Positions 3,869 through 44,300 of a stretch of DNA of 64,000 nucleotides are shown here, piece by piece. This stretch comes from Acidimicrobiia bacterium. Lineage in GTDB: Bacteria > Actinomycetota > Acidimicrobiia > IMCC26256 > JACDBD01. Below the pieces are notes generated by a model. That model was not told the origin of the DNA, did not search any database, and saw only the letters and a program-made list of their open reading frames with translations. Both the position numbers and the translations under genes were made by a program. Numbering within the stretch: position 1 is the stretch's first letter; every line of letters starts with the position of its first letter. Where the stretch lies: the NCBI GenBank assembly GCA_035938395.1, contig DASZGY010000023.1:5340-69339 (forward strand), given 5' to 3'.

Positions 3869-4114
3869 GGTAGTTGCGTCTCCCCGTTGGTCCCTCGGCG
3901 CTTGGAACCAGGCGCAATCCCGCGGCGCTGCCACCGCGATGACGACGACCCACCGGCCCGGCGTGCGGGCCGGCGAGCCGCCGGCTCGTCGGCCGGCGGG
4001 GGGACCCGGCCGACGGAGCGCACGGGGAAGTGCGGAGACTCTGCCCTCCCCGGAGGTTGCCGCCGCAGACGGCAGGCAGCCGCGGAGCTGCACGGGTGAC
4101 GCTACCGACGAGAC

Positions 4115-5596
4115 ATGGCACGCAAATTGCCGCCGAAGGAACGGCGTGTGAACTCTCCCGTCCACCCGGCGCAGGCGGTGGCGGCCTATAACGTTGCTTC
4201 GGCCATGGCCACGGCACCGCCTCCTCGTCGCCCCCCGCATCCGGGGCCGACCGACCACCGCTTCGCCGAGCCCACGCCGTTCGCGCGTCTTGCGATCACC
4301 CACGCTGCGAGCATCTGCGGCGACGTCTGCCTGACCGTCTCGCTGGCCGGGTCCCTGTTCTTCTCCGTGTCTCCCGGCCAGTCGCGAGAGAAGGTCCTGC
4401 TGTACCTGATCATCACGATGGCGCCGTTTGCCGTGATCGCGCCATTGCTCAGCCCCCTCCTCGACCGGATCCGCGGGGGCAGGAGGTTGATGATCCTCGC
4501 CACGTGCGCGGTACGAGCGGTGCTCTGCCTCTTCATTGCGCGCTACGTGAATGCGAGCGGCGCCGAGGCCCTCCTGATCTACCCCCTGGCCTTCGGCCTG
4601 CTCGTGATGCAGAAGACGTACACGATCGCCCGGAGCGCGCTCGTGCCCTCGCTCGTCAGCGGCGAGCGCGAGCTCGTGACCGCGAACTCGCGCCTCGCGA
4701 TCATCGCCGTCGTCGGGGGCTTCGTCGGCGGCCTGCCGGCCATCGGCGTCTACAAGCTCTTCGGTGCCGAGGGGTCTCTGATCCTCGCCGCGCTCGTGTA
4801 CGCGCTCGCGGCGATGCTCTCGTGGCAGATCCCTCGCGTCGAACGCGAGCAGGTCGGGCCGGACACCGAGCTCGAGAAGGAGGAGCTGCACGCTCCGAGC
4901 ATCATCCTGGCCGGCAGCGCCATGGGTCTGCTCCGGGGCGCGGTCGGTTTCCTCACGTTCCTCCTCGCCTTCGGACTCCGCCACAACGACGAGGCGCCGT
5001 GGGTGTTCGGTCTCGTCCTCGTCCTGAGCGGCGTCGGCGGGTTCATCGGCAATCTCTTGGCGCCCCAACTGCGCAAGATCGCGCGCGAGGAGGTCATTCT
5101 CGCCGGCTCGCTCGTGCTCCCCGCGGTTGGGTGCTTGTTCGCGGCTCGCTCGGCTTCGCTCGCGATGACGACATTCGGGGCGTTGCTCATCGCCGCCGGC
5201 GCGGCCGCGGGACGCGTCGCCTTCGACAGCCTGCTCCAGCGCGACGCGCCCGACGCGATTCGAGGGCGCAGCTTCGCCCGCTTCGAGACGCGCTTCCAGA
5301 TCACGTGGGTGGCCGGCGCGTTGATCCCGGTTGCGATCCCGCCCGTCTACCAGGACCTCCGCATCGGCTTGTTCGTGCTCGCCATCGGCCTCGGTTTCGC
5401 GGGGCTGTCGTACATCGCCGGCATGCGCGCCGCTCGCGAAGCCGTCGCGCGCCGTCGCCGTCGTATGGAGCGCACCCGGGAGACGGTCGAGCGCGGCTTC
5501 CGAGCCGGGCTCGCGCGGTTGCGTCATCCGGGACGCCGTGCACGAACCGGCGGGGAGCCCTCCAAAGGCAGGGGAGAAATCGAGGCCGGCTCGTAA
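4115..5596 (+). CDS. polytopic membrane protein, MFS-like transporter
   Basis: Multiple hydrophobic helices throughout (LTVSLAGSLFFSV, LLYLIITMAPFAVIAPLL, LIYPLAFGLLVM ...) and a basic C-terminal tail. The start could be ATG 4115 or ATG 4205. The family call is by overall architecture only. Confidence 0.6.
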   Translation: MARKLPPKERRVNSPVHPAQAVAAYNVASAMATAPPPRRPPHPGPTDHRFAEPTPFARLAITHAASICGDVCLTVSLAGSLFFSVSPGQSREKVLLYLIITMAPFAVIAPLLSPLLDRIRGGRRLMILATCAVRAVLCLFIARYVNASGAEALLIYPLAFGLLVMQKTYTIARSALVPSLVSGERELVTANSRLAIIAVVGGFVGGLPAIGVYKLFGAEGSLILAALVYALAAMLSWQIPRVEREQVGPDTELEKEELHAPSIILAGSAMGLLRGAVGFLTFLLAFGLRHNDEAPWVFGLVLVLSGVGGFIGNLLAPQLRKIAREEVILAGSLVLPAVGCLFAARSASLAMTTFGALLIAAGAAAGRVAFDSLLQRDAPDAIRGRSFARFETRFQITWVAGALIPVAIPPVYQDLRIGLFVLAIGLGFAGLSYIAGMRAAREAVARRRRRMERTRETVERGFRAGLARLRHPGRRARTGGEPSKGRGEIEAGS

Positions 5597-5619
5597 CGAC
5601 GTCAACTAGACAAGAGGCC

Positions 5620-12649: not shown

Positions 12650-12669
<20 letters not shown>
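11617..12669 (+). CDS. NAD-dependent epimerase/dehydratase (extended SDR)
   Basis: N-terminal AVTGASGLVGQRL glycine-rich NAD motif, then VSTAAVYG and a C-terminal hydrophobic tail. Confidence 0.8.
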
Positions 12670-13762
<1,093 letters not shown>

Positions 13763-13790
13763 CGTGCCGAGGTCGACCGCACCCGGCAAA

Positions 13791-14954
13791 TCACTGCGCG
13801 TTCCCGGGCTCGGCCGGGGCCGTGCCCGCGGTCGCGCTCGCATCCCGCTGGTCGCCGAGCTCGAGGCCCACTCGGCGCTGCCCGCGGTCGCGATACACCG
13901 TGACGTTGAGCTGCTCACCCGGCTTGCGCCGCCCGACCTCGCTCATCAGCTGGGAGACGCTCGAGATCGCAGTCGTCGAGCCGGCTTTCCCGACGTCGAC
14001 GATCACGTCGCCCTGCACGAGCCCCGCATTGTCGGCCGGGCCGCCGGGCACGACGCCCTGCACGCGTGCCCCGCCGCCGGTGCGGTCGGTGTCGTCGGTG
14101 GCCCAGACGCCGAGCCAGCCGTGCTCCGCGCTCCCGCGTGCAGTCAGCTGCGAGGCGACGTCGCGTGCCTGGTCGATCGGGAGCGCCAGACCCGCGGTGG
14201 AGGAGTCCGGCGGCACGACGAGGATGCCGACGACCTCGCCCCGGGTGTCGACGAGCGCGCCGCCCGAGTGCTCGCCGCTCGCGGTCATGTTCGTCTGAAT
14301 GAGACCGGCCACCGAGACGCCCCCGTCCGACACGAACGCTCGGTTGAACGATCCGATCTCGCCCACGTCGACCCAGCGGTGGCGTCCCGATTCGGACGCC
14401 GCCACGCCGACAACCTGCTGACCAGCCTCGAGGCCGGCCGACGCCCCGAGCTGCGCGGGTTGCATGCTCGTCCCGTCGACCGTCAGGACGGCGAGGTCGG
14501 AGACGGGGTCGCTGGCGTCCACGGCTGCCGGCAGCGTGCGGCCATCTGACGTGACGACCGCCACCGCGTCCGCGCCGTCGACGGCGTGCGCCGTCGTCAC
14601 GATCTGCCCCGCCTGCACGCAGACTCCCGACGCCCGTCCCGTCTCGTTGCCGCGCGCGGTCCGCACCGCGACCACGCTGGGCGCCAGGGTCGCCACCATC
14701 CTTTGGATCGCGCCGCTGCGCGCGCTCGGCGTGGGCCGGCTCGAGTTGTTGACGGTCATGAGCGCGACGACACCGGCGACGGCCGCGACCACGGTCAGGC
14801 CGGCGGCGAGCGCAACCCAGCGACCGCGTCGCGACGCCCGAGGCCGTGTCGTCGCGACGAACGACGTCATCTCGGTGGGGTGAACCCAGATCCGATCAGA
14901 CGGGTCGGGCGGCGGGCCGCCGGAACTCTCGTCCTCCGGCTCGTTGCCCGGCAT
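13791..14954 (-). CDS. HtrA-like trypsin-family serine protease with PDZ domain, membrane anchored
   Basis: ATG 14954 (MPGNEPED). TM segment WVALAAGLTVVAAVAGVVAL. Protease motifs TTAHAV, DLAVL and GEHSGGALV. C-terminal PDZ GLVQGDVIVDVG. Confidence 0.85.
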   Translation of the reverse strand: MPGNEPEDESSGGPPPDPSDRIWVHPTEMTSFVATTRPRASRRGRWVALAAGLTVVAAVAGVVALMTVNNSSRPTPSARSGAIQRMVATLAPSVVAVRTARGNETGRASGVCVQAGQIVTTAHAVDGADAVAVVTSDGRTLPAAVDASDPVSDLAVLTVDGTSMQPAQLGASAGLEAGQQVVGVAASESGRHRWVDVGEIGSFNRAFVSDGGVSVAGLIQTNMTASGEHSGGALVDTRGEVVGILVVPPDSSTAGLALPIDQARDVASQLTARGSAEHGWLGVWATDDTDRTGGGARVQGVVPGGPADNAGLVQGDVIVDVGKAGSTTAISSVSQLMSEVGRRKPGEQLNVTVYRDRGQRRVGLELGDQRDASATAGTAPAEPGNAQ

Positions 14955-20572: not shown

Positions 20573-23533
20573 ATGCGGGTGCCTACAGCACAAGGTCGCC
20601 GGCGCGGCCTTCGCGTGCGCGGGTGGATCATCGCCGGTGTCATCCTGCTGGTGATCCTCCTGTTCAGCTTGCGGGGGCTGGCGGGCTTCTACACCGATTT
20701 CCTGTGGTTCGATTCCGTCGGCCAGGGCGGCACCTGGCGAGAGCTGCTCTCGGCCAAGGTCGTGCCGGCGCTCGTCTTCACGGTCGTGTTCTTCGTGATC
20801 ATGCTGACGAGCCTGCTGATCGCAGATCGCCTCGCCCCGAAGTACCGGTCCATGGGGCCCGAGGACGAGCTCGTCGAGCGGTACCAGAACTTCGTGTCGG
20901 ACTACCAGGGCCGCATCCGCATCGGCGTCGCCCTGTTCTTCGCGTTGATCGCGGGCGTAGGCGTCTCCTCGCAATGGCAGGAGTGGGTGCTCTTCACGCA
21001 CCGGGTCGACTTCGGCGTCAAGGACCCGCAGTTCAACAAGGACATCGGCTTCTACGTCTTCCAGCTCCCGTTCCTGCGCTTCATCGCCAACTGGCTCTTC
21101 GCCGGCCTCGTGATCGTGCTGCTCGTGACGGCCGTCGCGCACTACCTCAACGGCGGCATCCGCTTCCAGAGCCCGTTCCAGCGGGTGACGCCACAGGTCA
21201 AGGCGCACCTCTCCGTGATCCTCGCCGTCATGGCGCTCGTCAAGACGGCGCAGTACTACCTCGACCGCTTCAACCTCGACTTCTCGCAACGCGGTGTCGT
21301 CACCGGGGCCAGCTACACGGACGTGAAAGCCCAGCTCCCGGCGCTGAACCTGTTGATCTTCATCTCGATCGTCGCCGCCGGGTTGTTCATCTGGAACATC
21401 TGGCGGCGGGGCTGGGTGCTCCCGATCATCGCGGTCGGGCTCTGGGGGTTCGTCTCGATCGTGATCGGCACCATCTATCCCGCCGGGGTCCAGAAGTTTC
21501 GGGTGGAGCCCAACGAGTTCCAGAACGAGCAGCGCTACATCGAGCGCAACATCGCGTCGACGCGGAACGCGTTCGGGCTCGCCTCCGTCAAGGACCAGCC
21601 CTTCGACTATCAGCAGAACCTCGACGCCTCGGTCGTCAACCAGAACAGGCCATCCATCGACAACGCGCGCCTGTGGGATCCGAACGTCATCCAGTCGACG
21701 TACCAGTCGCTCCAGGGCCTCCAGACCTTCTACAAGGTCGACAACGTCGACGTTGACCGCTACACCGTCGGCGACCAGACCCAACAGGTCGTGCTCTCGG
21801 CGCGCGAGATCAGCCAGGGTGAGCTTCCGAGCCAGTCGTGGGTGAACCAGCACCTCGTGTACACACACGGTTACGGGATCATCGCTTCGCCGACGAACGT
21901 CTCCGCCCAGGACGGGAACCCCGACTTCCTCCTCAGCGGGATTCCCGTCCCCAAGGACGCCCCGATCACCCTCAACCAGCCCGGCTTGTATTTCGGCGAG
22001 CACCAACCCGGCTACGCGCTCGTGGACGCCAAGCAACAAGAGTTCGACTACTCGCGGCCCGGTCGAGCCGACGCGACAACGCGCTACAAGGGCAAGGACG
22101 GCGTCAAGCTCGACAACCCGATCCGCCGGGCCGCGTTCGCGCTGCGTTTCGGCGACATCAACCCGCTCATCTCGGGGCAGGTCGGTGGCGGCACGAAGGT
22201 GCTGTACGTCCGCGACATCAAGGATCGCGTGACCAAGCTCGCCCCGTTCCTGAACTTCGATGCGGATCCGTACCCGGTCGTGAGCGGCGGGCGCGTGACG
22301 TGGGTGCTCGACGCGTACACAACGACGAGTCGTTATCCGTACTCGCAGATGACGTCGGGACCGAGCGACTCGGGTCTCAGCCACAACTTCAACTACGTCC
22401 GCAACTCGGTGAAGGCGACGGTCGACGCCTACGACGGCACGGTGAAGTTCTACGTGATCGACCCCAAGGACCCACTGATCCGGTCGTACCGGAAGGCGTT
22501 CCCCGACCTGTTCACCGACTTCAGCAAGATGCCGAAGGACCTTCAGGCGCACCTGCGCTACCCCGAGGACCTGTTCCGGGTGCAGTCGGACATCTACTCC
22601 CGCTACCACGTCACCGAGAGCCGGCGCTTCTACCAGGGGAGCGCAAAGTGGCTCCTGTCCCCCGACCCCGGCTCGGGCCCGCTGACGGCGGCACAGCTGC
22701 AGGCGGTTGCTCCGACCCCGGACTCGACGACCGGCAGGGGGAGGGGCGGCGCGACCTCGACCAGCGAGCGAATGCGGCCCTACTACCTCTACATCAACCA
22801 GCCGGGAGAGCAGCAGCCGAGCTTCATCATCCTCCAGCCGTTCGTGCCGGTGTCGGCCGGGAACAAACAGACGCGCCTGGTTTCGTTCATGACCGCGAGC
22901 TCGGATCCGAGGAACTACGGCCAACTGTCGGCATTCGAGATGCCGCAAGGGGAGTCCGTTCTGGGACCGGTGCAGATCGACAACCGGATCAAGAGCACGC
23001 CGGCCGTTTCCCAACAGCTCACGCTGCTGAACCAGCAGGGCTCGACCGTGATCCAGGGGAGCCTGCAGCTCATCCCCGTCGGCAACTCGATTCTCTACAT
23101 TCGCCCCTTCTACGTGCAGGCGGCCGGAGCATCGAGCTATCCGCAGTTCCGCTTCGTCGTCGTCGCGTATGCCGGGCAAGACCCCGTCCTCGCCTCGACG
23201 GTCAACGACGGCCTCGCGCAACTGTTCGGCCAGCCACCGACGCAACCACTGCCCGGTGGTGGCGCGGCGCCGGCGGCGCCGGCGACCCCGCCCGCGGGCG
23301 GCAACGTGCAGGACCTACTGAACCAGGCCGCCGCGAAATACCAGCAGGCCCAGGATGCGTTGCGTGGGGGCGATCTCGGTACCTATCAGCAATTGATCAA
23401 TCAGGTCGGCGACCTCCTCAACCAGGCTCGCCAGGCGGCCGGCGGGACGAGCGGCGGCGCGTCGACCCCGACCCCGACGACGACCGCACCCGCTCGTCAG
23501 ACTGCTGCCAAGGGCGGTGCCGCCGAGCCCTGA
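20573..23533 (+). CDS. UPF0182 family large membrane protein
   Basis: 986 aa. The N-terminal multi-TM region with FYTDFLWFDSVG, and later YVRNSVKATVDAYDG and LRYPEDLFRVQ, are characteristic of UPF0182 (the family of the mycobacterial Rv3193c-like proteins). Confidence 0.9.
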   Translation: MRVPTAQGRRRGLRVRGWIIAGVILLVILLFSLRGLAGFYTDFLWFDSVGQGGTWRELLSAKVVPALVFTVVFFVIMLTSLLIADRLAPKYRSMGPEDELVERYQNFVSDYQGRIRIGVALFFALIAGVGVSSQWQEWVLFTHRVDFGVKDPQFNKDIGFYVFQLPFLRFIANWLFAGLVIVLLVTAVAHYLNGGIRFQSPFQRVTPQVKAHLSVILAVMALVKTAQYYLDRFNLDFSQRGVVTGASYTDVKAQLPALNLLIFISIVAAGLFIWNIWRRGWVLPIIAVGLWGFVSIVIGTIYPAGVQKFRVEPNEFQNEQRYIERNIASTRNAFGLASVKDQPFDYQQNLDASVVNQNRPSIDNARLWDPNVIQSTYQSLQGLQTFYKVDNVDVDRYTVGDQTQQVVLSAREISQGELPSQSWVNQHLVYTHGYGIIASPTNVSAQDGNPDFLLSGIPVPKDAPITLNQPGLYFGEHQPGYALVDAKQQEFDYSRPGRADATTRYKGKDGVKLDNPIRRAAFALRFGDINPLISGQVGGGTKVLYVRDIKDRVTKLAPFLNFDADPYPVVSGGRVTWVLDAYTTTSRYPYSQMTSGPSDSGLSHNFNYVRNSVKATVDAYDGTVKFYVIDPKDPLIRSYRKAFPDLFTDFSKMPKDLQAHLRYPEDLFRVQSDIYSRYHVTESRRFYQGSAKWLLSPDPGSGPLTAAQLQAVAPTPDSTTGRGRGGATSTSERMRPYYLYINQPGEQQPSFIILQPFVPVSAGNKQTRLVSFMTASSDPRNYGQLSAFEMPQGESVLGPVQIDNRIKSTPAVSQQLTLLNQQGSTVIQGSLQLIPVGNSILYIRPFYVQAAGASSYPQFRFVVVAYAGQDPVLASTVNDGLAQLFGQPPTQPLPGGGAAPAAPATPPAGGNVQDLLNQAAAKYQQAQDALRGGDLGTYQQLINQVGDLLNQARQAAGGTSGGASTPTPTTTAPARQTAAKGGAAEP

Positions 23534-23550: not shown

Positions 23551-23621
23551 GGAATCGAGCGGAATCGGGGGGGATTGTTCGGATGGCCCCCGGATTGTTA
23601 CTATCTACGTAGTGGAAATCC
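23551..23621. promoter_or_regulatory. sufB upstream control region: phased GGAWT repeats, CTACGTAG palindrome and the ACGTAGTGGAAATC box
   Basis: GGAATCG at 23551 and 23561. GGATTGTT at 23572 and 23592. GGATGG at 23581. CTACGTAG at 23605-23612. The box is at 23607-23620, and the same 14-mer recurs at 35568-35581. Confidence 0.6.
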
Positions 23622-23689
23622 CCGGAACCCCTGTCCCCCGGGGCGTTTCGGAGTCTGAGACCGCCACCCGGTAGCGGAGGCGAGGGCGT

Positions 23690-25099
23690 ATGGCTGTCAG
23701 CGGAATCGATCTCGGCAAGTACAAGCTCGGCTGGGCCGACAGCACGGACGACTACGCCTACATCCCGAAGAAGGGCCTGAACGAGGAGATCGTCCGCGAG
23801 ATCTCCGGGCAGAAGTCCGAGCCCGACTGGATGCGGGACTTCCGGCTGAAGTCGCTGAAGCGGTTCGAGCGCAAGCCGATGCTCGACTGGTTCGCCAAGA
23901 ACATGCCGACCATCGACTTCGACGACATCTACTACTACCTGAAGCCGACCGACAAGGGAGAGGTCGCCGACAGCTGGGACATGCTCCCCGAGTCGATGAA
24001 GGCCACGTACGAGAAGCTCGGCATCCCCGAGGCGGAGCGGAAGTATCTCGCGGGCGTCACGGCGCAGTTCGAGAGCGAGACCGTCTACCACAAGAACCGT
24101 GACGAGCTGGCCAAGCAGGGTGTCCTGTTCACCGACATGGACACCGCAGTGCGCGAGTACCCCGAGATCGTGCGCGAGCACTTCGCCACGGTCATCCCCC
24201 CGGGTGACAACAAGTTCGCCGCGCTCAACTCGACCGTGTGGTCGGGCGGCTCGTTCATCTACGTGCCGCCGGGCGTGCACGTCGAGATGCCGCTGCAGGC
24301 GTACTTCCGCATCAACGCCGAGAACGCGGGCCAGTTCGAGCGGACGCTGATCATCGCCGACGAGGGCGCTTCGGTGCACTACGTCGAGGGGTGCTCGGCG
24401 CCGATCTACACGGGCGACTCGCTGCACTCGGCCGTGGTGGAGCTCGTCGCCAAGCCCGGCGCGCGCATCCGGTACACGACCATCCAGAACTGGTCGCCGA
24501 ACGTCTACAACCTGGTCACGAAGCGGGCGAAGGCCGAGCGTGAGGCGACCGTCGAGTGGATCGACGGCAACATCGGTTCGAAGTTGACGATGAAGTACCC
24601 GTCGGTCGTGATGACGGGGCCGAAGGCCCACGGCGAGGTGCTGTCGGTGGCGTACGCCGGCGAAGGCATGCACCAGGACGCCGGCGCCAAGATGACCCAC
24701 GTCGCGCCCGACACCACGTCCATCATCGAGTCGAAGTCGATCTCGAAGGACGGCGGGCGCACGACCTACCGCGGCCTGGTGAAGGTCGAGGAGGGCGCGC
24801 ACAACGTGAAGAGCCACGTGCGCTGCGACGCGCTGATCCTCGACGAGGACAGCCGGTCCGACACCTACCCGTACATGGAGATCGAGGAGAAGGACGCCCG
24901 CATCGGGCACGAGGCCACGGTCTCGAAGGTCGGTGAGGACCAGATCTTCTACCTGATGAGCCGCGGGCTCAGCGAGCAGCAGGCGACGGCGATGATCGTG
25001 AACGGCTTCATCGAGCCGATCGTGAAGACGCTGCCGATGGAGTACGCCGTCGAGCTGAGCCGCCTGATCGAGCTCAACATGGAAGGAGCGGTTGGCTAA
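23690..25099 (+). CDS. sufB: Fe-S cluster assembly protein SufB
   Basis: 469 aa with typical SufB sequence throughout (FRLKSLKRFERKPM, SGGSFIYVPPGV, GCSAPIY, HEATVSKV..DQIFYLMSRGL). GGAGG lies 9 nt upstream of the ATG. Confidence 0.97.
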   Translation: MAVSGIDLGKYKLGWADSTDDYAYIPKKGLNEEIVREISGQKSEPDWMRDFRLKSLKRFERKPMLDWFAKNMPTIDFDDIYYYLKPTDKGEVADSWDMLPESMKATYEKLGIPEAERKYLAGVTAQFESETVYHKNRDELAKQGVLFTDMDTAVREYPEIVREHFATVIPPGDNKFAALNSTVWSGGSFIYVPPGVHVEMPLQAYFRINAENAGQFERTLIIADEGASVHYVEGCSAPIYTGDSLHSAVVELVAKPGARIRYTTIQNWSPNVYNLVTKRAKAEREATVEWIDGNIGSKLTMKYPSVVMTGPKAHGEVLSVAYAGEGMHQDAGAKMTHVAPDTTSIIESKSISKDGGRTTYRGLVKVEEGAHNVKSHVRCDALILDEDSRSDTYPYMEIEEKDARIGHEATVSKVGEDQIFYLMSRGLSEQQATAMIVNGFIEPIVKTLPMEYAVELSRLIELNMEGAVG

Positions 25100-25106
25100 C
25101 CGCTCC

Positions 25107-26405
25107 ATGACTGCGTTCACGCCTGAAGCCGCACGTGCGCTCGGCGGGCCGGACTGGCTCGTCGAGCGTCGTCTTGCTGCGGCCGAGCAGCTCGACGGGA
25201 TCACCTGGCCCACCGACGCCGAGGAGATCTGGCGCTACAGCCGGATCGGCGAGCTCGATCTCGATCGCTTCCGTCCGCCGTCGCGCGACGAGCTGGGCGA
25301 GCCCGGGCCGGAGCCGGCGCCGGGCGGCGGGCCGGTCGCGGCCGAGGCAGGCGAGCGCGCCGGCCTGGTGGTCGTGCGCAACGGGCGGGTCGTGCACCAC
25401 GAGCTCGACGACACGCTCGTCGCCAAGGGCGTCCTCGTCTGCGGCCTCGCCACGTGCGAGGAGGCCGACGTCGCGGCGGTGCTGGGGACGTGCTCGCAGG
25501 CTTCGCCCGACGCGTTCACCGTGCTGCACGACGCGTTCCTCGCCGGAGGCGCGTTCATCAAGGTCCCCGCCGGCGTCGTCGTCGACAAGCCGATCATCGT
25601 GCTGCACTGGTCCGAGGGCGAGGGCCTGGCGACGTTCCCGCACACGTTGGTCGCGGCCGAGGAGAGCTCCGAGGTCACCGTTGTCGACCGCTTCGGCTCA
25701 CCGGAGGTCGGCGGCGCCGGTCATCTCGTCGACGCCGTGGTCGAGCTCCTGGTCGGCGACAACGCCCGGCTCCGGTACCTGTCGGTCCAGGAACACGGGC
25801 CGCACACGTGGCAGGTCGCGCTGCAGCGCGCCCACGTCGGAAGAGACGCCTCCCTGCATTCGTCGGCCGTGGCGCTGGGCGGTGACTACGCGCGGCTGCG
25901 TAGCGAGTCGCTGCTCGCGGGCGACAACTCAGAGAGCGATCTCATGGCCGTCTACTTCGGCGACCATACGCAGATGCTCGACTTCCGCACCCTCCAGGAC
26001 CACGACGCCGCCGGCACGCGCAGTGACCTCCTGTTCAAGGGCGCGGTCGAGGATCAGGCCCATTCCGTCTACTCGGGCCTCATCCGGCTCCGTCCCAGCG
26101 CCCGGAAGGCCAACGCGAGCCAGACCAACCGCAACCTCGTGCTCACCGAGGGCGCGGGGGCCGAGTCGATCCCGAACCTCGAGATCGAGGCCAACGACGT
26201 GAGGTGCTCGCACGCGAGCGCCGTCGGCCCCATCGACGAGGACCAGCTCTACTACCTCGAGAGCCGCGGCGTGCCGCCGGCGGAGGCGGAGCGCCTGATC
26301 GTGCTCGGGTTCTTCGACGACGTGCTCGACCGGCTGCCGATCCCGACGCTCGCGCGCGCGCTCCGTCGCACCGTGGTCGAGAAGGTGGAGCACCGGCGTG
26401 GGTGA
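25107..26405 (+). CDS. sufD: Fe-S cluster assembly protein SufD
   Basis: Family features FKGAV.D.A.SVYSGLIRL, NRNLVLTEGA and IPNLEIEANDVRCSHASAVGPIDEDQLYYLESRG. ATG 25107 is used; the ORF track uses TTG 25092. Confidence 0.9.
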   Translation: MTAFTPEAARALGGPDWLVERRLAAAEQLDGITWPTDAEEIWRYSRIGELDLDRFRPPSRDELGEPGPEPAPGGGPVAAEAGERAGLVVVRNGRVVHHELDDTLVAKGVLVCGLATCEEADVAAVLGTCSQASPDAFTVLHDAFLAGGAFIKVPAGVVVDKPIIVLHWSEGEGLATFPHTLVAAEESSEVTVVDRFGSPEVGGAGHLVDAVVELLVGDNARLRYLSVQEHGPHTWQVALQRAHVGRDASLHSSAVALGGDYARLRSESLLAGDNSESDLMAVYFGDHTQMLDFRTLQDHDAAGTRSDLLFKGAVEDQAHSVYSGLIRLRPSARKANASQTNRNLVLTEGAGAESIPNLEIEANDVRCSHASAVGPIDEDQLYYLESRGVPPAEAERLIVLGFFDDVLDRLPIPTLARALRRTVVEKVEHRRG

Positions 26406-26712
26406 CCTCCGGGTGTGCTCGGTGAAGGACGTCGAAGCGGGCTCGGCCAAGCGGTTCGACGTCGACGGTCTGCGCCTGTGCGTGGTGCGCATCGGCGACG
26501 ACTTCTACGTCGTCGACGACACGTGCTCGCACGCCGACTACTCGCTGGCGGAGGGCGACGTGTGGGAGGACGAGCGCGAGATCGAGTGCCCGAAGCACGG
26601 CTCGACGTTCTCGCTCGAGACCGGGGAACCGGCCACCCTGCCTGCCACGCAGCCGGTGCGGGTGTACGACGTCAACATCGACGGCGACGACGTGGTGGTG
26701 ACGAACGCGTGA
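26398..26712 (+). CDS. Rieske [2Fe-2S] ferredoxin-like protein of the suf operon
   Basis: 104 aa with CSHADYSL ... CPKHGSTF, the Rieske CxH...CxxH ligands. It overlaps the sufD stop, and its own stop overlaps the sufC start. Confidence 0.9.
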   Translation: MGDLRVCSVKDVEAGSAKRFDVDGLRLCVVRIGDDFYVVDDTCSHADYSLAEGDVWEDEREIECPKHGSTFSLETGEPATLPATQPVRVYDVNIDGDDVVVTNA

Positions 26713-27536
26713 GCACGCTACGGATCGCCGGGTTGCGGGTTGCCGTCGACGGCCAGGAGATCTTGCGCGGCGTCGACCTCGAGATCGCCTCGGGCGATGT
26801 CCACGCCCTCATGGGTCCGAACGGCTCGGGGAAGTCGACGCTGGCGCACGCGCTCATGGGCCGCCCCGAGTACGAGATCCTCGGCGGCTCGGTCACGCTC
26901 GACGGTCAGGAGCTCCTGGGTCTGCCGACGTGGGAGCGCGCGGCCAACGGGTTGTTCCTCGCGATGCAGTACCCGGTTGAAGTGCCCGGCGTGCGGCTAG
27001 TCGACTTTCTTGCCGCCGCCATCCGTGGTCGCGGCGGGGAGCCGAACGGGTTGACGGACCGGCTCGCAAGCGAGGCGGAGCGCCTCGCCGTCGGCGACCA
27101 GTTCCTGACCCGCGGCATCAACGTCGAGTTTTCCGGCGGCGAGCAGAAGCGCGCCGAGACGCTCCAGCTCGCGGTCCTCGAGCCCAAGATCGCGGTGCTC
27201 GACGAGATCGACTCCGGCCTCGACGTCGATGCACTCCGGGACGTCGCCCGGCGGGTCGAGGCGATGACCGAGGAGAGCAGCCTCGGCGTGCTCGCCATCA
27301 CCCACTACGCCCGGCTGCTGAGCGAGCTGCGCGCCGACCGGGTGCACGTGCTCATGGCGGGACGCGTCGTCACGAGCGGCGGGCCCGAGCTCGCCGACGA
27401 GCTCGAACGGGTCGGCTACGAAGGCTTGGCCGCGGAGCTCGGCGTCGAAACGCTCGCGGTCGAGACCGCCCGCGAGCAGGAGCCCTTCACCGACACGACG
27501 ATCGAGTCGAACCCCTTCTCCGACCCCCTGGCGTAG
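26709..27536 (+). CDS. sufC: SufC-like Fe-S assembly ATPase, divergent paralogue with C-terminal extension
   Basis: GTG 26709 (GTGA overlap). Walker A GPNGSGKST, signature FSGGEQKR, Walker B AVLDEIDSGLD and H-loop ITHY. An extra ~35-aa acidic tail follows (GLAAELGVETLAVETAREQEPFTDTTIESNPFSDPLA). Confidence 0.9.
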   Translation: MSTLRIAGLRVAVDGQEILRGVDLEIASGDVHALMGPNGSGKSTLAHALMGRPEYEILGGSVTLDGQELLGLPTWERAANGLFLAMQYPVEVPGVRLVDFLAAAIRGRGGEPNGLTDRLASEAERLAVGDQFLTRGINVEFSGGEQKRAETLQLAVLEPKIAVLDEIDSGLDVDALRDVARRVEAMTEESSLGVLAITHYARLLSELRADRVHVLMAGRVVTSGGPELADELERVGYEGLAAELGVETLAVETAREQEPFTDTTIESNPFSDPLA

Positions 27537-32202: not shown

Positions 32203-32382
32203 TCAGTTCCCGGCGTGCGTGGACTCCTGCTCGAGCAGCTGCTCGAGGGGATCAGAGTCGGGGTTGATCGCGGCAAGGCGCAGGTCGAGTAGGAAGTCGA
32301 CCACCTCGGCCGCCGAGACGAGGTCGCGGCTCCGGTACTGCTCGAGTGCCGAGTCGATCATCGTCACCAGCGCCTGGCTCAT
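32203..32382 (-). CDS. small acidic hypothetical protein (59 aa)
   Basis: ATG 32382 is preceded by GGGAAGGGG with a 5-nt spacer. Codon usage looks coding-like. No family was recognised. Confidence 0.4.
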   Translation of the reverse strand: MSQALVTMIDSALEQYRSRDLVSAAEVVDFLLDLRLAAINPDSDPLEQLLEQESTHAGN

Positions 32383-32520
32383 CTCAGCCCCTTCCCAGTC
32401 GGCCTTCCGAGTGATCAACGTAGTCGGTCAACGTTCCATGCCCGTGTCACGTTTATATCCGGGGTGTGAACGACGTCACCCCGGTCATCGGGGCGTTTCC
32501 ACCCGAATAGCCTGAAGACG

Positions 32521-32976
32521 ATGCTCTCGCTCGGAGATCGCGCTCCTTCGCTGCAGCTCCCCGACGCGGCCACCGGCGAATCCGTCACCGACCCGTGGCG
32601 GGAGGGTCCCGTGGTTCTCGCCTTCTTCAAGACCACGTGCCCGGTCTGCCAGATGGCCGCGCCCAAGGTGCAGGCGCTGGCCGAGGCCGGGGTGCGCGTC
32701 GTCGCGGTGGGCGAGGACCCGCCGCCGGCGATCCAGACCTACGCCGACCGCTACGGCCAGAAGGTCCCGACGCTCAGCGAGACGGCTCCGTATCCCGCCT
32801 CGGACGCGTTCGGGATCGACACCGTGCCGACGCTGTTCCGCGTCGACGAGGACGGCACCGTCCGCGACGCGGTGGTGTCTTGGGACCGAGCCGAATGGAA
32901 CCGGTTCGCCGAAGCAGCCGGCGGTGCCGCGGTCTCGGACGAGGGAGACGGGCTCCCTCCGTTCCGCCCCGGCTGA
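32521..32976 (+). CDS. thioredoxin-fold redoxin (TlpA/AhpC-TSA-like), CxxC
   Basis: GDRAPSLQLPD...VVLAFFKTTCPVCQ with downstream VPTLFRVDEDG. Confidence 0.8.
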   Translation: MLSLGDRAPSLQLPDAATGESVTDPWREGPVVLAFFKTTCPVCQMAAPKVQALAEAGVRVVAVGEDPPPAIQTYADRYGQKVPTLSETAPYPASDAFGIDTVPTLFRVDEDGTVRDAVVSWDRAEWNRFAEAAGGAAVSDEGDGLPPFRPG

Positions 32977-32990
32977 AACAGCCGCAACGC

Positions 32991-33008
32991 CTGACCCGGT
33001 CGGGTCAG
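32991..33008. terminator. palindrome/hairpin between convergent redoxin and sufU genes
   Basis: CTGACCCG-GT-CGGGTCAG with perfect 8-nt arms, located between two stop codons. Confidence 0.35.
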
Positions 33009-33021
33009 CACGCTCCGAGGG

Positions 33022-33513
33022 CTAGGCGTCGACCGACTCGCGTTCGTCGAGACCTTGCTGGAGGGTGTTCCAGGCGAGGGTCGCGCACTTGATGCGCACC
33101 GGGAACTTGACGACGCCCTGTAGCGCTTCGAGGTCGCCGAGGCGCACGCCTTCGAGCTCGGCGGTGAGGTCCGAGCCGTCGCTCTCGCCCTCGAGCTTCG
33201 ACTCGTGGATGGACATCAGCGCCTTGAAGGCGCGGATGAGCTTGCGGGCCTCGTCGACCGGCTTTCCCTTCACCGCCGCGCTCATCATCGACGTCGACGC
33301 CTGACTGATCGAGCATCCCTGCCCGTCGATCTTGACGTCGCGGACGGTCTCGGTATCGGGATCGATGTCGAGGTAGAGGACGACCTCGTCGCCGCACAGC
33401 GGATTGAAGCCCTCGGCCTTGGTGGCCGGGGGGACCGGGAGGTCGCCGCGGTTCCGGGGCGAGCGGTAGTGGTCGAGGATGATCTCGCGGTAGAGGTCTT
33501 CGAGGCCGGGCAT
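33022..33513 (-). CDS. sufU: SufU-type Fe-S cluster scaffold/sulfur acceptor
   Basis: LYREIILDHYRSPRN, NPLCGDEV, DGQGCSISQAS and KCATLAWNTL. Confidence 0.93.
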   Translation of the reverse strand: MPGLEDLYREIILDHYRSPRNRGDLPVPPATKAEGFNPLCGDEVVLYLDIDPDTETVRDVKIDGQGCSISQASTSMMSAAVKGKPVDEARKLIRAFKALMSIHESKLEGESDGSDLTAELEGVRLGDLEALQGVVKFPVRIKCATLAWNTLQQGLDERESVDA

Positions 33514-33528
33514 CGGGGGGACTCCGTT

Positions 33529-34767
33529 CTAGATGGCGAAGAATTTCTCGGCCTTGGCCAACGACTCGACGAGTGCGTCGGCGTCACTCTCGTCGTTGTA
33601 CACGTAGAGCGAGGCGCGGGTGGTGGCGGGCACACCGAGCACCCGCATCAGAGGTTTCGCACAGTGGTGTGACGCCCGCACGCACACGCCGTCCTCGTCG
33701 AGCACCTGGGCGACGTCGTGGGCGTGAATGCGGTCGAACAGGAACGAGATCGCGCCGCCGCGCTGATCGACGTCGCGGGGGCCGTGAACGTGCAGGCGGT
33801 TCTCGAAGCGCTCCTCGAGCGCCCGGAGCGTGTACTCGGTGAGCTGCTTCTCGTGGGCGCGGACCGCGTCCATTCCGAGCGCCGAGAGGTAGTCGATAGC
33901 GGCGGCGAGCCCGCTGGCCTCGACGAACGGCATGGTCCCGGCCTCGAACTTCCAGGGCACCTCGTTGGGCTCGAAGCCGTCGAAGCGCACATCGGTGATC
34001 ATCTCGCCGCCGCCGAGGAAGGGCGGCATCGCGTCGAGCAGCTCGGCGCGGGCCCAGAGGCCGCCGAGACCGGTCGGGCCGAGCATCTTGTGGCCGGTGA
34101 AGCCGACGAAGTCGGCGTCCCACGCCTGCACGTCGACCGGGAGGTGGGGGACGGCCTGGGCGGCGTCCACGTTCACGAGGGCGCCGGCGGCGTGGGCGGC
34201 GTCGGACAGCAATCGGATGTCGTTCAGCGTCCCGAGCACGTTCGACATGGCCGTGACCGACAGGAGCTTCGCCCCGTCCAGCAGCCGGTCGAGGTCGGTG
34301 AGGTCGAGCTGGAAGTCGTCCGTGATCGGGATCCAGCGCAGCTCGACGCCGCGCTCCTCGACGAGGATGTGCCACGGCACGACGTTGGCGTGGTGCTCCA
34401 TCTCGGTGATGACCACCGCATCGCCCGGCCCGAGGTTCTTTCGGGCCCAGGAGTACGCGACGAGGTTCATCGCCTCGGTGATGTTCTTCGTGAACACGAT
34501 CTCGCTGGTGGCGCGCGCGTTGAGCAGCTTGGCCACCTTGGCGCGGGCGCCCTCGTAGGCGGCGGTCGACTCCTCGGCGATCGTGTAGATGCCGCGGTGC
34601 ACGTTCGCGTAGTGGTGGCGGTGGTGGTGCTCCATGGCGTCGAGCACCGAGCGCGGCTTCTGGGACGACGACGCCGAGTCGAGATACACGAGCGGCTTGC
34701 CGTTGACCTTGCGCTCGAAGATCGGGAAGTCGGCCTTGACGCGGCTGACGTCGAGGACCTCGGTCAT
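33529..34767 (-). CDS. sufS: cysteine desulfurase SufS (group II)
   Basis: FPIFERKVNGKPLVYLDSASSSQKP, HRG.Y, FTGHKMLGPTG (PLP lysine) and RASHHCAKP (catalytic Cys loop). The ATG overlaps the upstream sufC stop (ATGA). Confidence 0.95.
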   Translation of the reverse strand: MTEVLDVSRVKADFPIFERKVNGKPLVYLDSASSSQKPRSVLDAMEHHHRHHYANVHRGIYTIAEESTAAYEGARAKVAKLLNARATSEIVFTKNITEAMNLVAYSWARKNLGPGDAVVITEMEHHANVVPWHILVEERGVELRWIPITDDFQLDLTDLDRLLDGAKLLSVTAMSNVLGTLNDIRLLSDAAHAAGALVNVDAAQAVPHLPVDVQAWDADFVGFTGHKMLGPTGLGGLWARAELLDAMPPFLGGGEMITDVRFDGFEPNEVPWKFEAGTMPFVEASGLAAAIDYLSALGMDAVRAHEKQLTEYTLRALEERFENRLHVHGPRDVDQRGGAISFLFDRIHAHDVAQVLDEDGVCVRASHHCAKPLMRVLGVPATTRASLYVYNDESDADALVESLAKAEKFFAI

Positions 34768-35543
34768 CCCCCCACCTCCGCGGTGCGGAAGGCGTCGAAG
34801 CCTTCGCCCTCGAGGCGGTCGGCGAGCTCGCGGCCGCCCGAGGCGACGATGCGCCCGCCGAGCAGGATGTGGACGGCGTCGGGCGTGAGGTGCTCGAGAA
34901 TCCGCCGGTAGTGCGTGATGAGCAGGATCCCGAGCTGCGGTCGCGCCGAGCGGACCGCTTCGATGCCGCGGGCCACGACACCGAGCGCGTCGATGTCGAG
35001 ACCGGAGTCGGTCTCGTCGAGCACGGCGAAATCGGGCTCCATCAGCGCCATCTGGAGGATCTCGTTCCGCTTCTTCTCACCGCCGGAGAACCCCTCGTTG
35101 AGGTACCGGTCGATGAACCGTGTGTCCATGCCCAGCCGACCGGCCCACTCGATGACCGCCATGCGGACCTCGAGCACCGAGAAGTCGTCGATGCCCTTCC
35201 GGGCCGACAGCGCCTGGCGGAGGAAGTTCAGCACGCTCACCCCGGGGATCTCCTCGGGGTGTTGAAAGCCGAGGAAGAGCCCCCGGCTGGCGCGCTCGTT
35301 CGTCGACAGGCCGGTGATGTCCTCGCCCTCGAAGCGGATCCGGCCCGCCGTCACGTCGTAGGCGGGATTGCCGAGGAGCGTCGCCGCCAGCGTCGACTTG
35401 CCCGATCCGTTCGGGCCCATGAGGGCGTGCAGTTCGCCCGCAGGCACGGCGAGGGACACTCCCTGCAGAATCTCCTTGCCCTCGACCGCGACGTGGAGAT
35501 CGTCGATCTCGAGCGCGGGGCCGGGGTTCGAATCCGAGGCCAT
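34764..35543 (-). CDS. sufC: SufC Fe-S assembly ATPase, canonical-looking paralogue
   Basis: GPNGSGKSTLA, LNEGFSGGEKKRNEILQ, AVLDETDSGLDIDAL and ITHY. Confidence 0.93.
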   Translation of the reverse strand: MASDSNPGPALEIDDLHVAVEGKEILQGVSLAVPAGELHALMGPNGSGKSTLAATLLGNPAYDVTAGRIRFEGEDITGLSTNERASRGLFLGFQHPEEIPGVSVLNFLRQALSARKGIDDFSVLEVRMAVIEWAGRLGMDTRFIDRYLNEGFSGGEKKRNEILQMALMEPDFAVLDETDSGLDIDALGVVARGIEAVRSARPQLGILLITHYRRILEHLTPDAVHILLGGRIVASGGRELADRLEGEGFDAFRTAEVGG

Positions 35544-35548
35544 GGCCC

Positions 35549-35581
35549 GATTGTAATAACACTACGGACGTAGTGGAAATC
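35549..35581. promoter_or_regulatory. second copy of the suf box (GATTGT ... ACTACG-GA-CGTAGT ... GGAAATC) in the divergent sufC/methyltransferase intergenic region
   Basis: GATTGT at 35549-35554. Inverted repeat ACTACGGACGTAGT at 35561-35574. The 14-mer ACGTAGTGGAAATC at 35568-35581 is identical to 23607-23620. Confidence 0.6.
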
Positions 35582-35602: not shown

Positions 35603-36373
35603 TTGAGCACGGGCGACGCGGAGGAGCGGCGGCGGCGAGTGGAGGCGTTGCCGCTTTGGATGCACACGATCGACCTCGGCGGCGGCCTGACCACGCCGGG
35701 GGCGTGGACTCCCGACGACCACGCCGGGACCCTCGAGGCCTTCGGCCATATCGACTTGCGTGGCAAGAAGGTGCTCGACATCGGTTGCCTCGATGGCCTG
35801 TGGACGTTCGATGCGGAGCGCCGCGGCGCCGCCCAGGTGTATGCCACGGACCTCGTGTCCCAGGTCACCCCGAACCGGGAGCCCTATTTCCGGCTCGCGC
35901 ACGACCTCCTCGGTTCGCGAGCCCACTACGCGCCCGATCTGTCCGTGCTCGATGTCGCCCAGCTCGGGGTCAACGACTTCGATGTCGTCCTCTACCTCGG
36001 CGTCTACTACCACCTGCGCGATCCCCTCCTTTCATTCGCACGACTCCGGCAGGTCATGCGGACGGGGGCGATCCTGCTCGTAGAAGGGCAGGTGATCGAC
36101 GCTCCCGAGGTGTACGCCAGGTTCTTCTATCGAGAGCACTACCTGGGTGACCGCTCGAATTGGTGGATTCCCACAATTCCGTGCCTCCGCCAGTGGGTCG
36201 AGTCCTCGTTCTTTGAGATCGAGGAGGAGTACCGGCAGACGTATTTCGACATGCCGCTCGTCGAACAGACGGGGCGATACGTGTTGCGCGCGCGTGCGGT
36301 CGAGCGCGCCGATCCGAACATCGCGTTTCCTGATCGTGAGCTCGAGCGGTTCGACCTCAGTCGGTACGAGTAG
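35603..36373 (+). CDS. class I SAM-dependent methyltransferase (CmoB/DUF1698-like)
   Basis: WMHTIDLGGGLTTPG and KKVLDIGCLDGLWTF (SAM motif I). The start is moved to TTG 35603 because GGAGG (35593-35597) lies 5 nt upstream. The ORF-track start GTG 35573 lies inside the conserved box. Confidence 0.75.
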   Translation: MSTGDAEERRRRVEALPLWMHTIDLGGGLTTPGAWTPDDHAGTLEAFGHIDLRGKKVLDIGCLDGLWTFDAERRGAAQVYATDLVSQVTPNREPYFRLAHDLLGSRAHYAPDLSVLDVAQLGVNDFDVVLYLGVYYHLRDPLLSFARLRQVMRTGAILLVEGQVIDAPEVYARFFYREHYLGDRSNWWIPTIPCLRQWVESSFFEIEEEYRQTYFDMPLVEQTGRYVLRARAVERADPNIAFPDRELERFDLSRYE

Positions 36374-39913: not shown

Positions 39914-40924
39914 TCAGCTCGCGGCCGACGGGGTCGACAGGGACAGTGCGAAGTCGCCGCCGGGATCGGTCCACCAGGCCGCGAGGCCGAGACCGGCGGC
40001 GGCCAGCTCCGCCTCGACCCGCGCACGGCGGAACTTGGCGCTGATCTCGGTCCGCATCTCCTCGCCGTCCGCGAACTCGACCTGCAGATCGAGCTCGTGC
40101 ACCCGCACCGTTTGCGCGCCGAGCGACCGCAGGCGCATTTCGATCCACTCTTGGTCCGAGTCCCACCGCGCGACGTGCTCGAAGCGCTCCGGCACGAAGT
40201 CGGCGTCGAGCTCTCGGTTCAGCACCGAAAGGACGTTGCGGTTGAACGCCGCCGTCACACCGGCGTCGTCGTCGTACGCGGCCACAAGCCGCTTGGGGTC
40301 CTTCACGAGGTCGGTTCCGAGGAGGAGCGTGTCGTCAGGCGCGAGCCCGGCGGCGAGGCTCCCGTAGAAGTGCGCCCGGCCCTCCGGGTCGAGGTTCCCG
40401 ATCGTGCTGCCGAGGAATGCCACGAGGCGCGTACCGCCTCCCGGGATCCGGTCGAGGTGGCGCTCGAAGTCGCCGACGACGGCGTGCACGTCGACGCCGG
40501 GATACTCGCCTTCGATCGCGCGGGCCGCGTAGCGCAGGGTCGGCTCGCTCACGTCGAACGGGACGAAGCGCCGAAGGGATCCGTGCGCCGAGAGCGCGTC
40601 CAGCAACAGCCGTGTCTTCTCCGACGTGCCCGAGCCCAGCTCGACGAGCGTGTCGGCAGATGTGCGCGCCGCGATGTCTCCGGCGTGCCGGGCGAGGATC
40701 GCGCGCTCGGTACGGGTCGGGTAGTACTCGGGGAGCCGCGTGATCTCGTCGAAGAGGCGGCAACCCTCCTCGTCGTAGAACCACTTCGGCGGGAGGACCT
40801 TCGGGCTCGCGGTGAGGCCGGCACGCGCGTCGGCCCGCAACGCGGCGGCGAGGTCGTCGGGACCGAGGTGGACGTCGACGCGGGACGGCGATGAGGTGGG
40901 GGAGATGGTGGGCCTCTCGATCAG
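39914..40924 (-). CDS. egtD: L-histidine N-alpha-methyltransferase EgtD
   Basis: [52 protein letters not shown]. There is no ATG/GTG between the egtC stop and the conserved core. Start candidates are CTG 40924 (CTGA overlap) or TTG 40840. Confidence 0.9.
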
Positions 40925-41670
40925 AACGGGCGGACTTCGAGCTTGTCGTCGCCGAGCTCGACGACCGAGCCGTCCTTGACGGCTTCCCAGCCGGCCTCGT
41001 CGTCGTACGGCTCCGACGCGACGACAACGGCTCCGGTGAGCTGGCGATCGTCGAACACGAAGAGCGAGTTGCGGCACGCGGTGGCCGCGATGCGCTCGCC
41101 GTCGGTCAGCAGGAGGTTGAGGCGCGCCGTCGTGAGCTCTTCGACCAGTCCGATGACCGAGACCAGCGCGTCGGCGGGCGGCGTGCCGGCGTCGAGCCGG
41201 TCGAGCACGAGCGCGAAGAGGAGCTCCGAGTCGGTGGCGCCGCCAATGCCGAGCGCGCGCGCTTCGCTCACCTTGTGCCGCAGCTCGCGGCCGACGCCGG
41301 TGCGGAACCCGGGCACGAAACCGTTGTGCGAGAAGAGCCACGGGCCCTCGGTGAACGGGGGCGTGCTCGTCTCTTCGATGGGCATGCCCGGTGACGCCGA
41401 GCGCACCGCCGCGAGCACCGCGTTCGAGCTCACGAGGCCGGCGATGCTCGCGAACGAGACGTCGGCCCAGATCTGCCGCGTTGTGCGATAGCGAGCGGGC
41501 TCGACTCGCTTGTCGCGGTCGTACCAGCCGACCCCGAACCCGTCGGCGTTGATCGTCCCGTGCGTCTGGTAGCGCGGCGCGAACGACTGCTGGAGCAACG
41601 AGTGCTCCGGCTTGATGATCAGCTTCTCGAGCGTGACCGAAGGTCCGACGTAGGCGAGGTGGCGGCACAT
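40921..41670 (-). CDS. egtC: ergothioneine biosynthesis amidohydrolase EgtC (class II amidotransferase fold)
   Basis: N-terminal MCRHLAY (Cys2 nucleophile), [11 protein letters not shown] and LFSHNGF. Confidence 0.9.
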
Positions 41671-41676
41671 GCGCGT

Positions 41677-44183: not shown

Positions 44184-44200
44184 TGGTACCAGGAGCTCAT
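44126..44200 (-). CDS. candidate 24-codon upstream ORF (MSSWYQWTSPVRNLAWVTAHYGYR) preceding/overlapping the egtA start
   Basis: AGGAGG (44211..44206), a 5-nt spacer and ATG 44200. The TAA stop at 44128..44126 lies 2 nt before the in-frame egtA GTG 44123. Confidence 0.4.
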   Translation of the reverse strand: MSSWYQWTSPVRNLAWVTAHYGYR

Positions 44201-44300
44201 GGGTTCCTCCTGCCAGGTTTCGGTCGGGTCGGTCTCACGTTGTACGGACTCGGGGACGGATCGGACGGGCGGTTTCGTGGAAACGCACCGGCGCGCACTC

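Follow-up and report, generated by a model that had tools for sequence, protein, structure and literature searches.

Two separated suf operons for Fe-S cluster assembly lie within the 64,000 nucleotides of Acidimicrobiia DNA analysed here (the window, to which all positions refer unless a related locus is named), and an AT-rich box recurs in the promoter regions of both. The question that this locus raises is whether the box is an operator through which the two operons are controlled together, as an earlier note on this DNA had proposed, and which protein would bind it. The operons, the boxes and the adjoining gene are located as follows.

23593 to 23620, forward strand: predicted operator copy of the sufB type (30.9 bits with the ortholog matrix), composed of a weak left arm GATTGTTACTATC at 23593-23605, the spacer TA and a strong right arm CGTAGTGGAAATC at 23608-23620.

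23690 to 27536, forward strand: operon 1, with sufB (23690-25099), sufD (25092-26405) and a second sufC (26415-27536), from Pfam SUFBD_core and ABC_tran.

32203 to 35543, reverse strand: operon 2, with sufC (34764-35543), sufS (33529-34767), sufU (33022-33513) and a small ORF (32203-32427), from Pfam.

35554 to 35581, forward strand: predicted operator copy of the sufC type (45.5 bits with the ortholog matrix), composed of a sufC-proximal arm TAATAACACTACG at 35554-35566, the spacer GA and a distal strong arm CGTAGTGGAAATC at 35569-35581.

35604 to 36373, forward strand: divergent methyltransferase gene (Pfam Methyltransf_9/11) with a TTG start and GAGGAGG 7 nt upstream of it.

The 14-mer ACGTAGTGGAAATC, described in the earlier note as an exact core common to both boxes, occurs exactly twice in the 64-kb window, at 23607-23620(+) and 35568-35581(+), each time within a suf promoter region. 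Scanning of the window with the ortholog matrix returned the two boxes at 45.5 and 30.9 bits and everything else at 6 bits or less, the top score in 200 shuffles of the window being 9.6 bits, and no further half-site of at least 14 bits was found in the 64 kb; the match of the boxes is far beyond chance. With about 36% G+C in a window of about 69%, the boxes are as AT-rich as had been claimed, and they are intergenic or placed at a gene start: site 1 lies between the UPF0182 gene (20573-23533) and sufB (ATG at 23690), and site 2 abuts the start codon of the inverted sufC (CAT, 35541-35543). The UPF0182 gene is the upstream neighbor of sufB, and the absence of a sufR-like gene in that place had been correctly noted, while the first string, previously placed at 23584, starts at 23583.

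When aligned without gaps (offset 11961), both boxes form one 28-bp dyad with the same centre and the consensus GATTTCCACTACG-NN-CGTAGTGGAAATC, and both contain ACTA-N3-ACGTAGTGGAAATC. The core of site 2 (sufC) is a perfect 7+7 palindrome, CACTACG-GA-CGTAGTG; at site 1 (sufB) the left arm is degenerate and the strong right arm is as in site 2. A gapped alignment of the boxes was rejected, since the gap-free alignment accounts for both and the flanks are unconserved. The collinear flanks reported previously were an artefact of such gaps and are not conserved in relatives: ATGGCCC largely overlaps the sufC start codon at site 2, and at site 1 it is not conserved among relatives. The inverted-repeat spacer, given as 0 in one copy and 2 in the other, is replaced by the single dyad centre of the gap-free alignment. 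As to the surroundings of the sufB box, a direct repeat GGATTGTT...GGATTGTT (23572-23599) has one copy just upstream of the box and one inside it, and an inverted repeat CCCCGG...CCGGGG lies just downstream (23620-23646). Many relatives also have the CCC(C)GG that directly follows the box, as does the suf promoter of M. tuberculosis.

The assembly system had been called a split one. Its two operons are indeed separated, but they represent sufBDC plus sufCSU, with two SufC paralogs. Both SufC proteins exceed the cut-off (212.8 bits) of the NCBIfam SufC equivalog model TIGR01978, with 270.8 bits for the product of 26415-27536 (+) and 315.2 bits for that of 34764-35543 (-), and they share about 50% identity with each other; the former begins with some 100 aa of additional N-terminal sequence, which is poorly conserved. 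The small acidic ORF downstream of sufU (32203-32427, -) has no match in Pfam or NCBIfam, is conserved in 22 related loci at about 60-74 aa and may be the fourth gene of the sufCSU operon.

A SufD search restricted to one genome per species yielded 80 relative loci, nearly all from Acidimicrobiia MAGs, with a SufD identity of 38-97% and a gene layout mostly the same as in the window. The footprint in relatives that had been suggested as a check was found, the half-site being kept with up to three mismatches in 56/60 sufB and 26/33 sufC upstream regions. In front of sufB it always has the sufB orientation and lies 23-88 nt before the ATG; in front of sufC the strong arm is usually sufC-distal and the second arm is 2 nt away. 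The half-site matrix, applied as a 13-2-13 dyad to 1.37 Mb of relative loci at a threshold of at least 18 bits, gave 96 matches, 60 of them upstream of sufB and 33 upstream of sufC, with the remaining three upstream of sufD-like genes or a probable sufC. A dispersed repeat without promoter bias, which the earlier note had also weighed, is not what was observed, with two copies in 64 kb and 93/96 matches at suf promoters. Among 109 distinct sites, columns 7-11 and 18-22 of the dyad are nearly invariant, and the non-consensus arm of each box type is conserved among its orthologs. In distant Acidimicrobiales, a small four-cysteine protein (CKHF...C...C..DC) is encoded between sufB and sufD, or just upstream of a box followed by sufD (L064 7303-7692, L074 8567-8983, L070 1044-1400). 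A near-exact copy of the window's sufC leader with its box (GGCCATGGACACGATTGTAATAACACTACGGACGTAGTGGAAATG) is present in L164 (1716-1830), beside or inside a TctC-family gene, and may reflect a chimeric contig or a relocated promoter.

The boxes also overlap the core promoters predicted for the two operons.

35550 to 35579, reverse strand: predicted sufC core promoter (promoter scan, 9/12 matches), with the -35-like hexamer TTCCAC (35578-35573), a spacer of 17-18 nt, the -10 hexamer TACAAT (35555-35550), then 6 nt and the ATG at 35543.

23596 to 23604, forward strand: predicted extended -10 of sufB, TGT-TACTAT, inside the left arm of the box (near-invariance in relatives).

At sufC, for which the scan itself reports the -35 as TTTCCA from 35579, the box would cover the -35 hexamer and the entire spacer and reach the second base of the predicted -10. 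Among 112 distinct sufC upstream regions, TTCCAC is found at the -35 position in 93 and TAnnnT at box positions 27-32 in 86, and the start codon follows 6-8 nt further on in 61. Since 6 nt separate the -10 from the ATG in the window, sufC is probably leaderless. At sufB, TTGTTACTAT is nearly invariant in the sites of relatives, though it departs from the half-site consensus; read by the actinobacterial rule (TAnnnT with a TGn extension), it would be an extended -10, and the transcription start of sufB would accordingly fall inside the strong right arm. The divergent methyltransferase gene starts 23 nt from the strong arm of the sufC box, so that its promoter would overlap the box as well. The segment 35550-35604 (+), ATTGTAAT, contains a -10-like TGTAAT that mirrors the TACAAT of sufC; the methyltransferase gene (TTG at 35604) may therefore use an overlapping promoter, which the same box would occlude. 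This gene is not a conserved neighbor, as a homolog adjoins sufC only in L143, and a GT4 glycosyltransferase or orfX-Rrf2 takes its place in other relatives.

In the explanation that we consider the best overall, with a probability of roughly 0.6, a dimeric transcription factor would bind the 28-bp two-fold symmetric operator and repress by occupying the core promoter; its gene would lie outside the window, and its likeliest identity would be a member of the Rrf2 family that lacks cysteines and has IscR and CymR among its relatives. Where the promoter is leaderless, at sufC and, in relatives, also at an iron(III) ABC transporter, the operator would cover the -35, the spacer and the first bases of the -10, and at sufB it would hold the extended -10 and the putative transcription start. 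With the operator lying over both core promoters, the two suf operons would be switched together. Further genes under the control of this site in related Acidimicrobiia would be those of an A-type carrier, of ApbC/Mrp, of Nfu and of iron uptake. It is very probable, judging from sequence comparisons, that the box is a real, conserved transcription-factor operator common to both suf operons, and conservation, dyad symmetry, promoter overlap and Fe-S association give the shared operator of the original proposal strong comparative support. We infer repression rather than activation solely from the position of the sites, and the transcription starts at the suf promoters are likewise predicted ones.

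The predicted regulon reaches beyond the two suf operons. An exact pattern, CACTAYSNNCGTAGTGGAAAT, which leaves out the sufB type, was found in at least 120 loci on metagenome contigs; in these and in four iron-transporter loci obtained by protein search (L208-L211), 125 matrix matches of at least 20 bits were counted. Among the matches listed, a sufC homolog lies directly downstream in 93/125, sufB or sufD in 4/125 and a gene for an iron(III) ABC binding protein in 7/125, four of these seven being L208-L211. The box was also found in L177 and L194, where apbC/mrp lies on one side of it and the gene of an A-type carrier on the other, as well as upstream of an A-type carrier gene in L202 and of a NifU-like gene, nfu, in L147, these carrier and nfu sites being on metagenome contigs of uncertain taxonomy. 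In L195 it precedes the gene of a cupredoxin-like lipoprotein, together with an IdeR box. Matches on the low-G+C contigs L089, L109, L132, L145, L153 and L163, and those in L137 (HTH_17 membrane protein) and L205 (LytTR response regulator), were treated as probable chance or ambiguous matches. Across about 200 loci the box is kept at both suf promoters, and its association with suf and Fe-S genes is near-exclusive.

The iron(III) ABC promoters have the leaderless geometry seen at sufC, and a canonical IdeR box and a divergent DtxR-family gene are found beside the suf-type box. The joint presence of the IdeR iron box and the suf-type box suggests dual control of iron uptake. The IdeR/DtxR iron box is a 19-bp palindrome of the type TTAGGTTAGGCTAACCTAA, to which the suf box shows no likeness; the iron boxes that stand beside the suf-type box in fbpA promoters read TTAGGGCACCCTAAC and TTAGGTGAGCCTAAC. 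IdeR/DtxR as the box-binding protein, a candidate prompted by the divergent DtxR-family gene in L088, was rejected, as a separate canonical iron box is present there. In L088, L208, L209 and L211 (e.g., L208 2855-2940), the region between the ideR-like gene and the iron(III) ABC genes has two different operators adjacent to each other.

As regards the regulator, Pfam analysis of essentially all ORFs revealed no regulator gene in the window, where the only HTH product is a duplicated AsnC-type/NirDL-like protein similar to siroheme decarboxylase (12650-13942, -), probably an enzyme rather than a regulator. The window and 79 loci of its clade yielded no Rrf2 gene, no orfX and no other regulator. 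An Rrf2 remnant was also considered for the window region next to Lactamase_B, where synteny would place it, and was rejected, the region encoding MsrA. The candidate comes from a sister lineage. Pfam analysis of 110 ORFs near metagenome sites returned four Rrf2 genes among the matches listed, and a probe search, again among the matches listed, returned seven metagenome loci with sufC, the box, orfX and a divergent Rrf2, in which the PF02082 genes lie 0.1-0.55 kb from the box. Independent look-ups of homologs of this Rrf2 gave the order sufU-sufS-sufC-box-orfX, divergent from Rrf2, in 5/5 cases, each with a single box of 30-36 bits upstream of sufC. Overall, a cysteine-free Rrf2 gene adjoins the box and sufCSU in 12 loci of the sister lineage. 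The adjacency is circumstantial; the box lies between orfX and sufC, outside the Rrf2 promoter, and none was seen upstream of Rrf2 or in the orfX-Rrf2 intergenic region of the sister-lineage loci. Autoregulation of Rrf2 was rejected, that intergenic region having only a weak CTTTCCAC-like half-site in two loci. The conserved orfX (127-135 aa; L095, L104, L140, L212, L213, L215 and L219, e.g., L213 3552-3959) has no family match. In the sister lineage it invariably has the box-bearing sufC promoter on one side and the divergent gene of the cysteine-free Rrf2 on the other, and it could encode a partner or sensor of the regulator.

The candidate Rrf2 protein (MRVTAKVDYAVRAAMVLARAADGDGGPVKGERIG...) has no cluster-binding cysteines, and its sole model match is to the Rrf2 superfamily. 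Its nearest solved structures are T. potens IscR, CymR and IscR, and in an alignment to T. potens IscR it keeps the IscR-like recognition-helix Glu and wing Arg. The lack of cysteines leaves the sensing of Fe-S or iron status, the presumed signal, unexplained. The box itself has the outline WWWW-CC-N14-GG-WWWW. Among 112 sites, GG occupies columns 22-23 in 96, with A/T tracts outside, and columns 6-7 of the weaker arm read CC in 40, GC in 30 and AC in 30; the CC-to-GG distance is 14 nt in all sites. The type-2 site of E. coli IscR (xxWWWWCCxYAxxxxxxxTRxGGWWWWxx), bound by both apo- and holo-IscR, e.g., at sufA and hyaA, is similarly a dyad, about 28 bp long, whose ends are A/T-rich and directly followed inward by CC and GG. 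It is likewise found at promoters of Fe-S assembly genes, the IscR regulon also having suf, erpA and nfuA, and an Rrf2 protein without a cluster is able to read it; the Glu and wing Arg kept in the candidate are the residues that read type-2 elements. In contrast, CC and GG are 13 nt apart in the IscR site, the inner core CACTACG/CGTAGTG is strongly conserved in the box and not in the IscR motif, and IscR activates at sufA whereas the position of the box suggests repression. The candidate is devoid of cluster ligands, and with 86 bits it does not qualify as an IscR equivalog, for which the cut-off is 207.55.

A physical link between an Rrf2 gene and suf genes is shared with the Rrf2-type SUF regulators (NCBIfam TIGR02944 'suf_reg_Xantho' and the Chloroflexota locus L075). 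In L075, where a three-cysteine Rrf2 lies upstream of sufCBDSU, the promoter has TAATTCCTA-N9-TAGGAATTA, a palindrome with the ends TAATTCC...GGAATTA as in the box, but the CACTACG core is missing from this site, and the box matrix gives it less than 10 bits. Regulators of this type have three cysteines and the Acidimicrobiia Rrf2 none, and the candidate scores 64.7 bits with TIGR02944, whose cut-off is 110.65. CymR of B. subtilis and S. aureus is, like the candidate, a cluster-free Rrf2 protein; it is among the closest solved structures and provides the best NCBIfam equivalog model (90.8 bits), yet this score is far under the CymR cut-off of 195, and the CymR regulon consists of cysteine and sulfur uptake, neither suf nor iron. 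The CymR box ends in ...ATMGGAATTW. As quoted in PMC9338935, B. subtilis CymR binds DNA only in complex with a partner enzyme, which offers a possible analogy for the conserved neighbor orfX.

Given a real operator, we regard an Rrf2 protein as its probable binder, the identity of the protein being deduced from gene order and likeness, and a protein of another family as an unlikely one. The corresponding reading, in which a regulator of some other family binds the box and the Rrf2 of the sister lineage regulates something else, is itself rather unlikely. Although the loci of the window's clade show no regulator gene in linkage with the box, the Rrf2 promoter is without a box and the CC-GG spacing is unlike that of characterised Rrf2 sites, the Rrf2-sufCSU synteny was present in every look-up and both the outline of the box and the content of the regulon resemble those of IscR. 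Moreover, no further DNA-binding family recurs near the sites, the LytTR response regulator and the HTH_17 protein being isolated occurrences.

The box might instead be the operator of a SufR-type repressor (COG2345, [4Fe-4S], AT-hook) of the kind known from mycobacteria, Streptomyces and cyanobacteria, with its gene in another part of the genome, an assignment that we consider improbable. The M. tuberculosis SufR site ATTTTGTCACACTGATGTTTGTGAAAATC, for which sequence and footprint have been reported (bioRxiv 10.64898/2025.12.26.696629; PMC8371249) and which has also been seen by cryo-EM, has the same outline as the box: an A/T tract, CAC, N10, GTG and an A/T tract. Its best match to the sufB-type matrix is in the predicted register, with a score reached by 12 of 20000 shuffles, but it amounts to only about 4 bits. 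Because outline and register are shared, the earlier view that the box bears no resemblance to SufR operators is not supported, although the absence of CAAC-N6-GTTG, which speaks against SufR, was correctly observed. CAAC-N6-GTTG is the SufR core of cyanobacteria, Streptomyces and Corynebacterium, and ACACT-N5/6-TGTGA that of M. tuberculosis. The M. tuberculosis operator (ATTTTGTCACACT-N5/6-TGTGAAAAT) similarly controls a suf operon and overlaps its promoter; its right half, TGTGAAAATCCC, compares with AGTGGAAATCCC in the window box and AGTGAAAATCCC in close relatives, while the left halves differ. A/T tracts flank the palindrome of the box, as the AT-hooks of SufR require; they are 3-6 bp long (AAAT, ATT, TAATAA), where 4 bp or more would be expected for SufR, and their distance from the dyad equals that in M. 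tuberculosis.

SufR homologs are present in Acidimicrobiales, but neither the window nor about 200 loci with a box yielded a COG2345 gene, linkage of sufR to the box was seen in none of the loci examined, and the Acidimicrobiales loci with sufR beside sufBCD have no box. In L081, L084 and L087, where sufR is divergent from fdx-sufBCD, no match reaches 10 bits. A search with Ilumatobacter SufR (supplement of bioRxiv 10.64898/2025.12.26.696629) gave 262 homologs, and SufR was rejected as the binder after three contexts had been fetched, each with sufR beside fdx-sufBCD and no box. The co-occurrence of SufR and the box in one genome was dropped from consideration, as ENA ERZ25039600 is a whole-sample assembly and not a single genome. 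SufR has been reported to read its core palindrome with low specificity, whereas the core is the most conserved part of the box, and with its carriers and iron uptake the predicted regulon exceeds those described for SufR. In our judgement, the evidence favors an Rrf2 regulator over SufR.

It is very doubtful that the box has no dedicated regulator and that the likeness of the two sites merely reflects promoter elements that both have (a -35, a -10 or the target of an alternative sigma factor) or a promoter module that was duplicated recently. The box does hold promoter-like hexamers, but its best-conserved bases are those of the spacer palindrome CACTACG/CGTAGTG, which is not read by RNA polymerase, and the site is two-fold symmetric. 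It faces opposite ways at sufB and sufC and is differently placed relative to the putative transcription starts, which points to the behavior of a repressor operator and not to a duplicated promoter. The duplicated promoter module once envisaged for this locus is abandoned, as the sites face opposite ways relative to their genes and have only the operator consensus in common; conservation of the non-consensus arms among orthologs further argues against a recent duplication. An ECF-sigma promoter was rejected, since the bases that follow the GGAAAT arm on its downstream side vary and provide no ECF-type -10.

Least credible is a hairpin in RNA or DNA (5' UTR element, attenuator or terminator) or a dispersed repeat (REP/MITE), even with the perfect 7+7 inverted repeat of site 2 and a sufB strong arm about 70 nt upstream of the sufB ATG: no compensatory change was detected in 109 distinct sites (500/500 shuffles equalled or exceeded the observed covariation), no Rfam match was obtained at the gathering threshold or at E<=1, a leaderless sufC would not have the box in its transcript, and a repeat is excluded by copy number and location, with two copies in 64 kb and those elsewhere nearly all at promoters of Fe-S and iron genes. 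The lack of covariation between the arms points to a protein-bound DNA operator, most likely that of a repressor.

With the operator bound by an Rrf2 protein as the preferred reading, the box provides a precise and directly testable operator, a candidate regulator with its protein sequence in hand, and a draft regulon in which the two suf operons are joined by A-type carrier, ApbC/Mrp, Nfu and, next to an IdeR box, iron(III) uptake; it also supports leaderless expression of sufC and of the iron transporter. Acidimicrobiia are abundant soil and freshwater Actinomycetota with almost no cultured representatives, and to our knowledge none of their regulators has been characterised. The box would join the operators that regulators of Fe-S homeostasis are already known to use, in a class without characterised regulators. 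If the cysteine-free Rrf2 were confirmed, the class would control Fe-S homeostasis without a cluster-bearing sensor, and the question would be which signal it reads. As a tentative extension that we hold possible but not probable, the cysteine-free Rrf2, possibly with orfX as sensor, might govern Fe-S assembly and iron uptake in Acidimicrobiia as their master regulator, acting via a previously undescribed WWWWCC-N14-GGWWWW operator at leaderless promoters; it would then fill the role that cluster-bearing SufR or IscR has elsewhere.

Two further loci in the window deserve mention. Three adjacent genes at 40921-44234 (-) encode GATase_4, FGE-sulfatase plus DinB_2, and GCS2 domains, and look like an ergothioneine cluster (egtC-egtB-egtA-like). 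At 1727-5605 (-), a stop-to-stop frame of 1292 codons matches polyphosphate kinase domains only in its C-terminal part of about 680 aa (residues 614-1273), which reflects either a long N-terminal extension or an over-extended frame.
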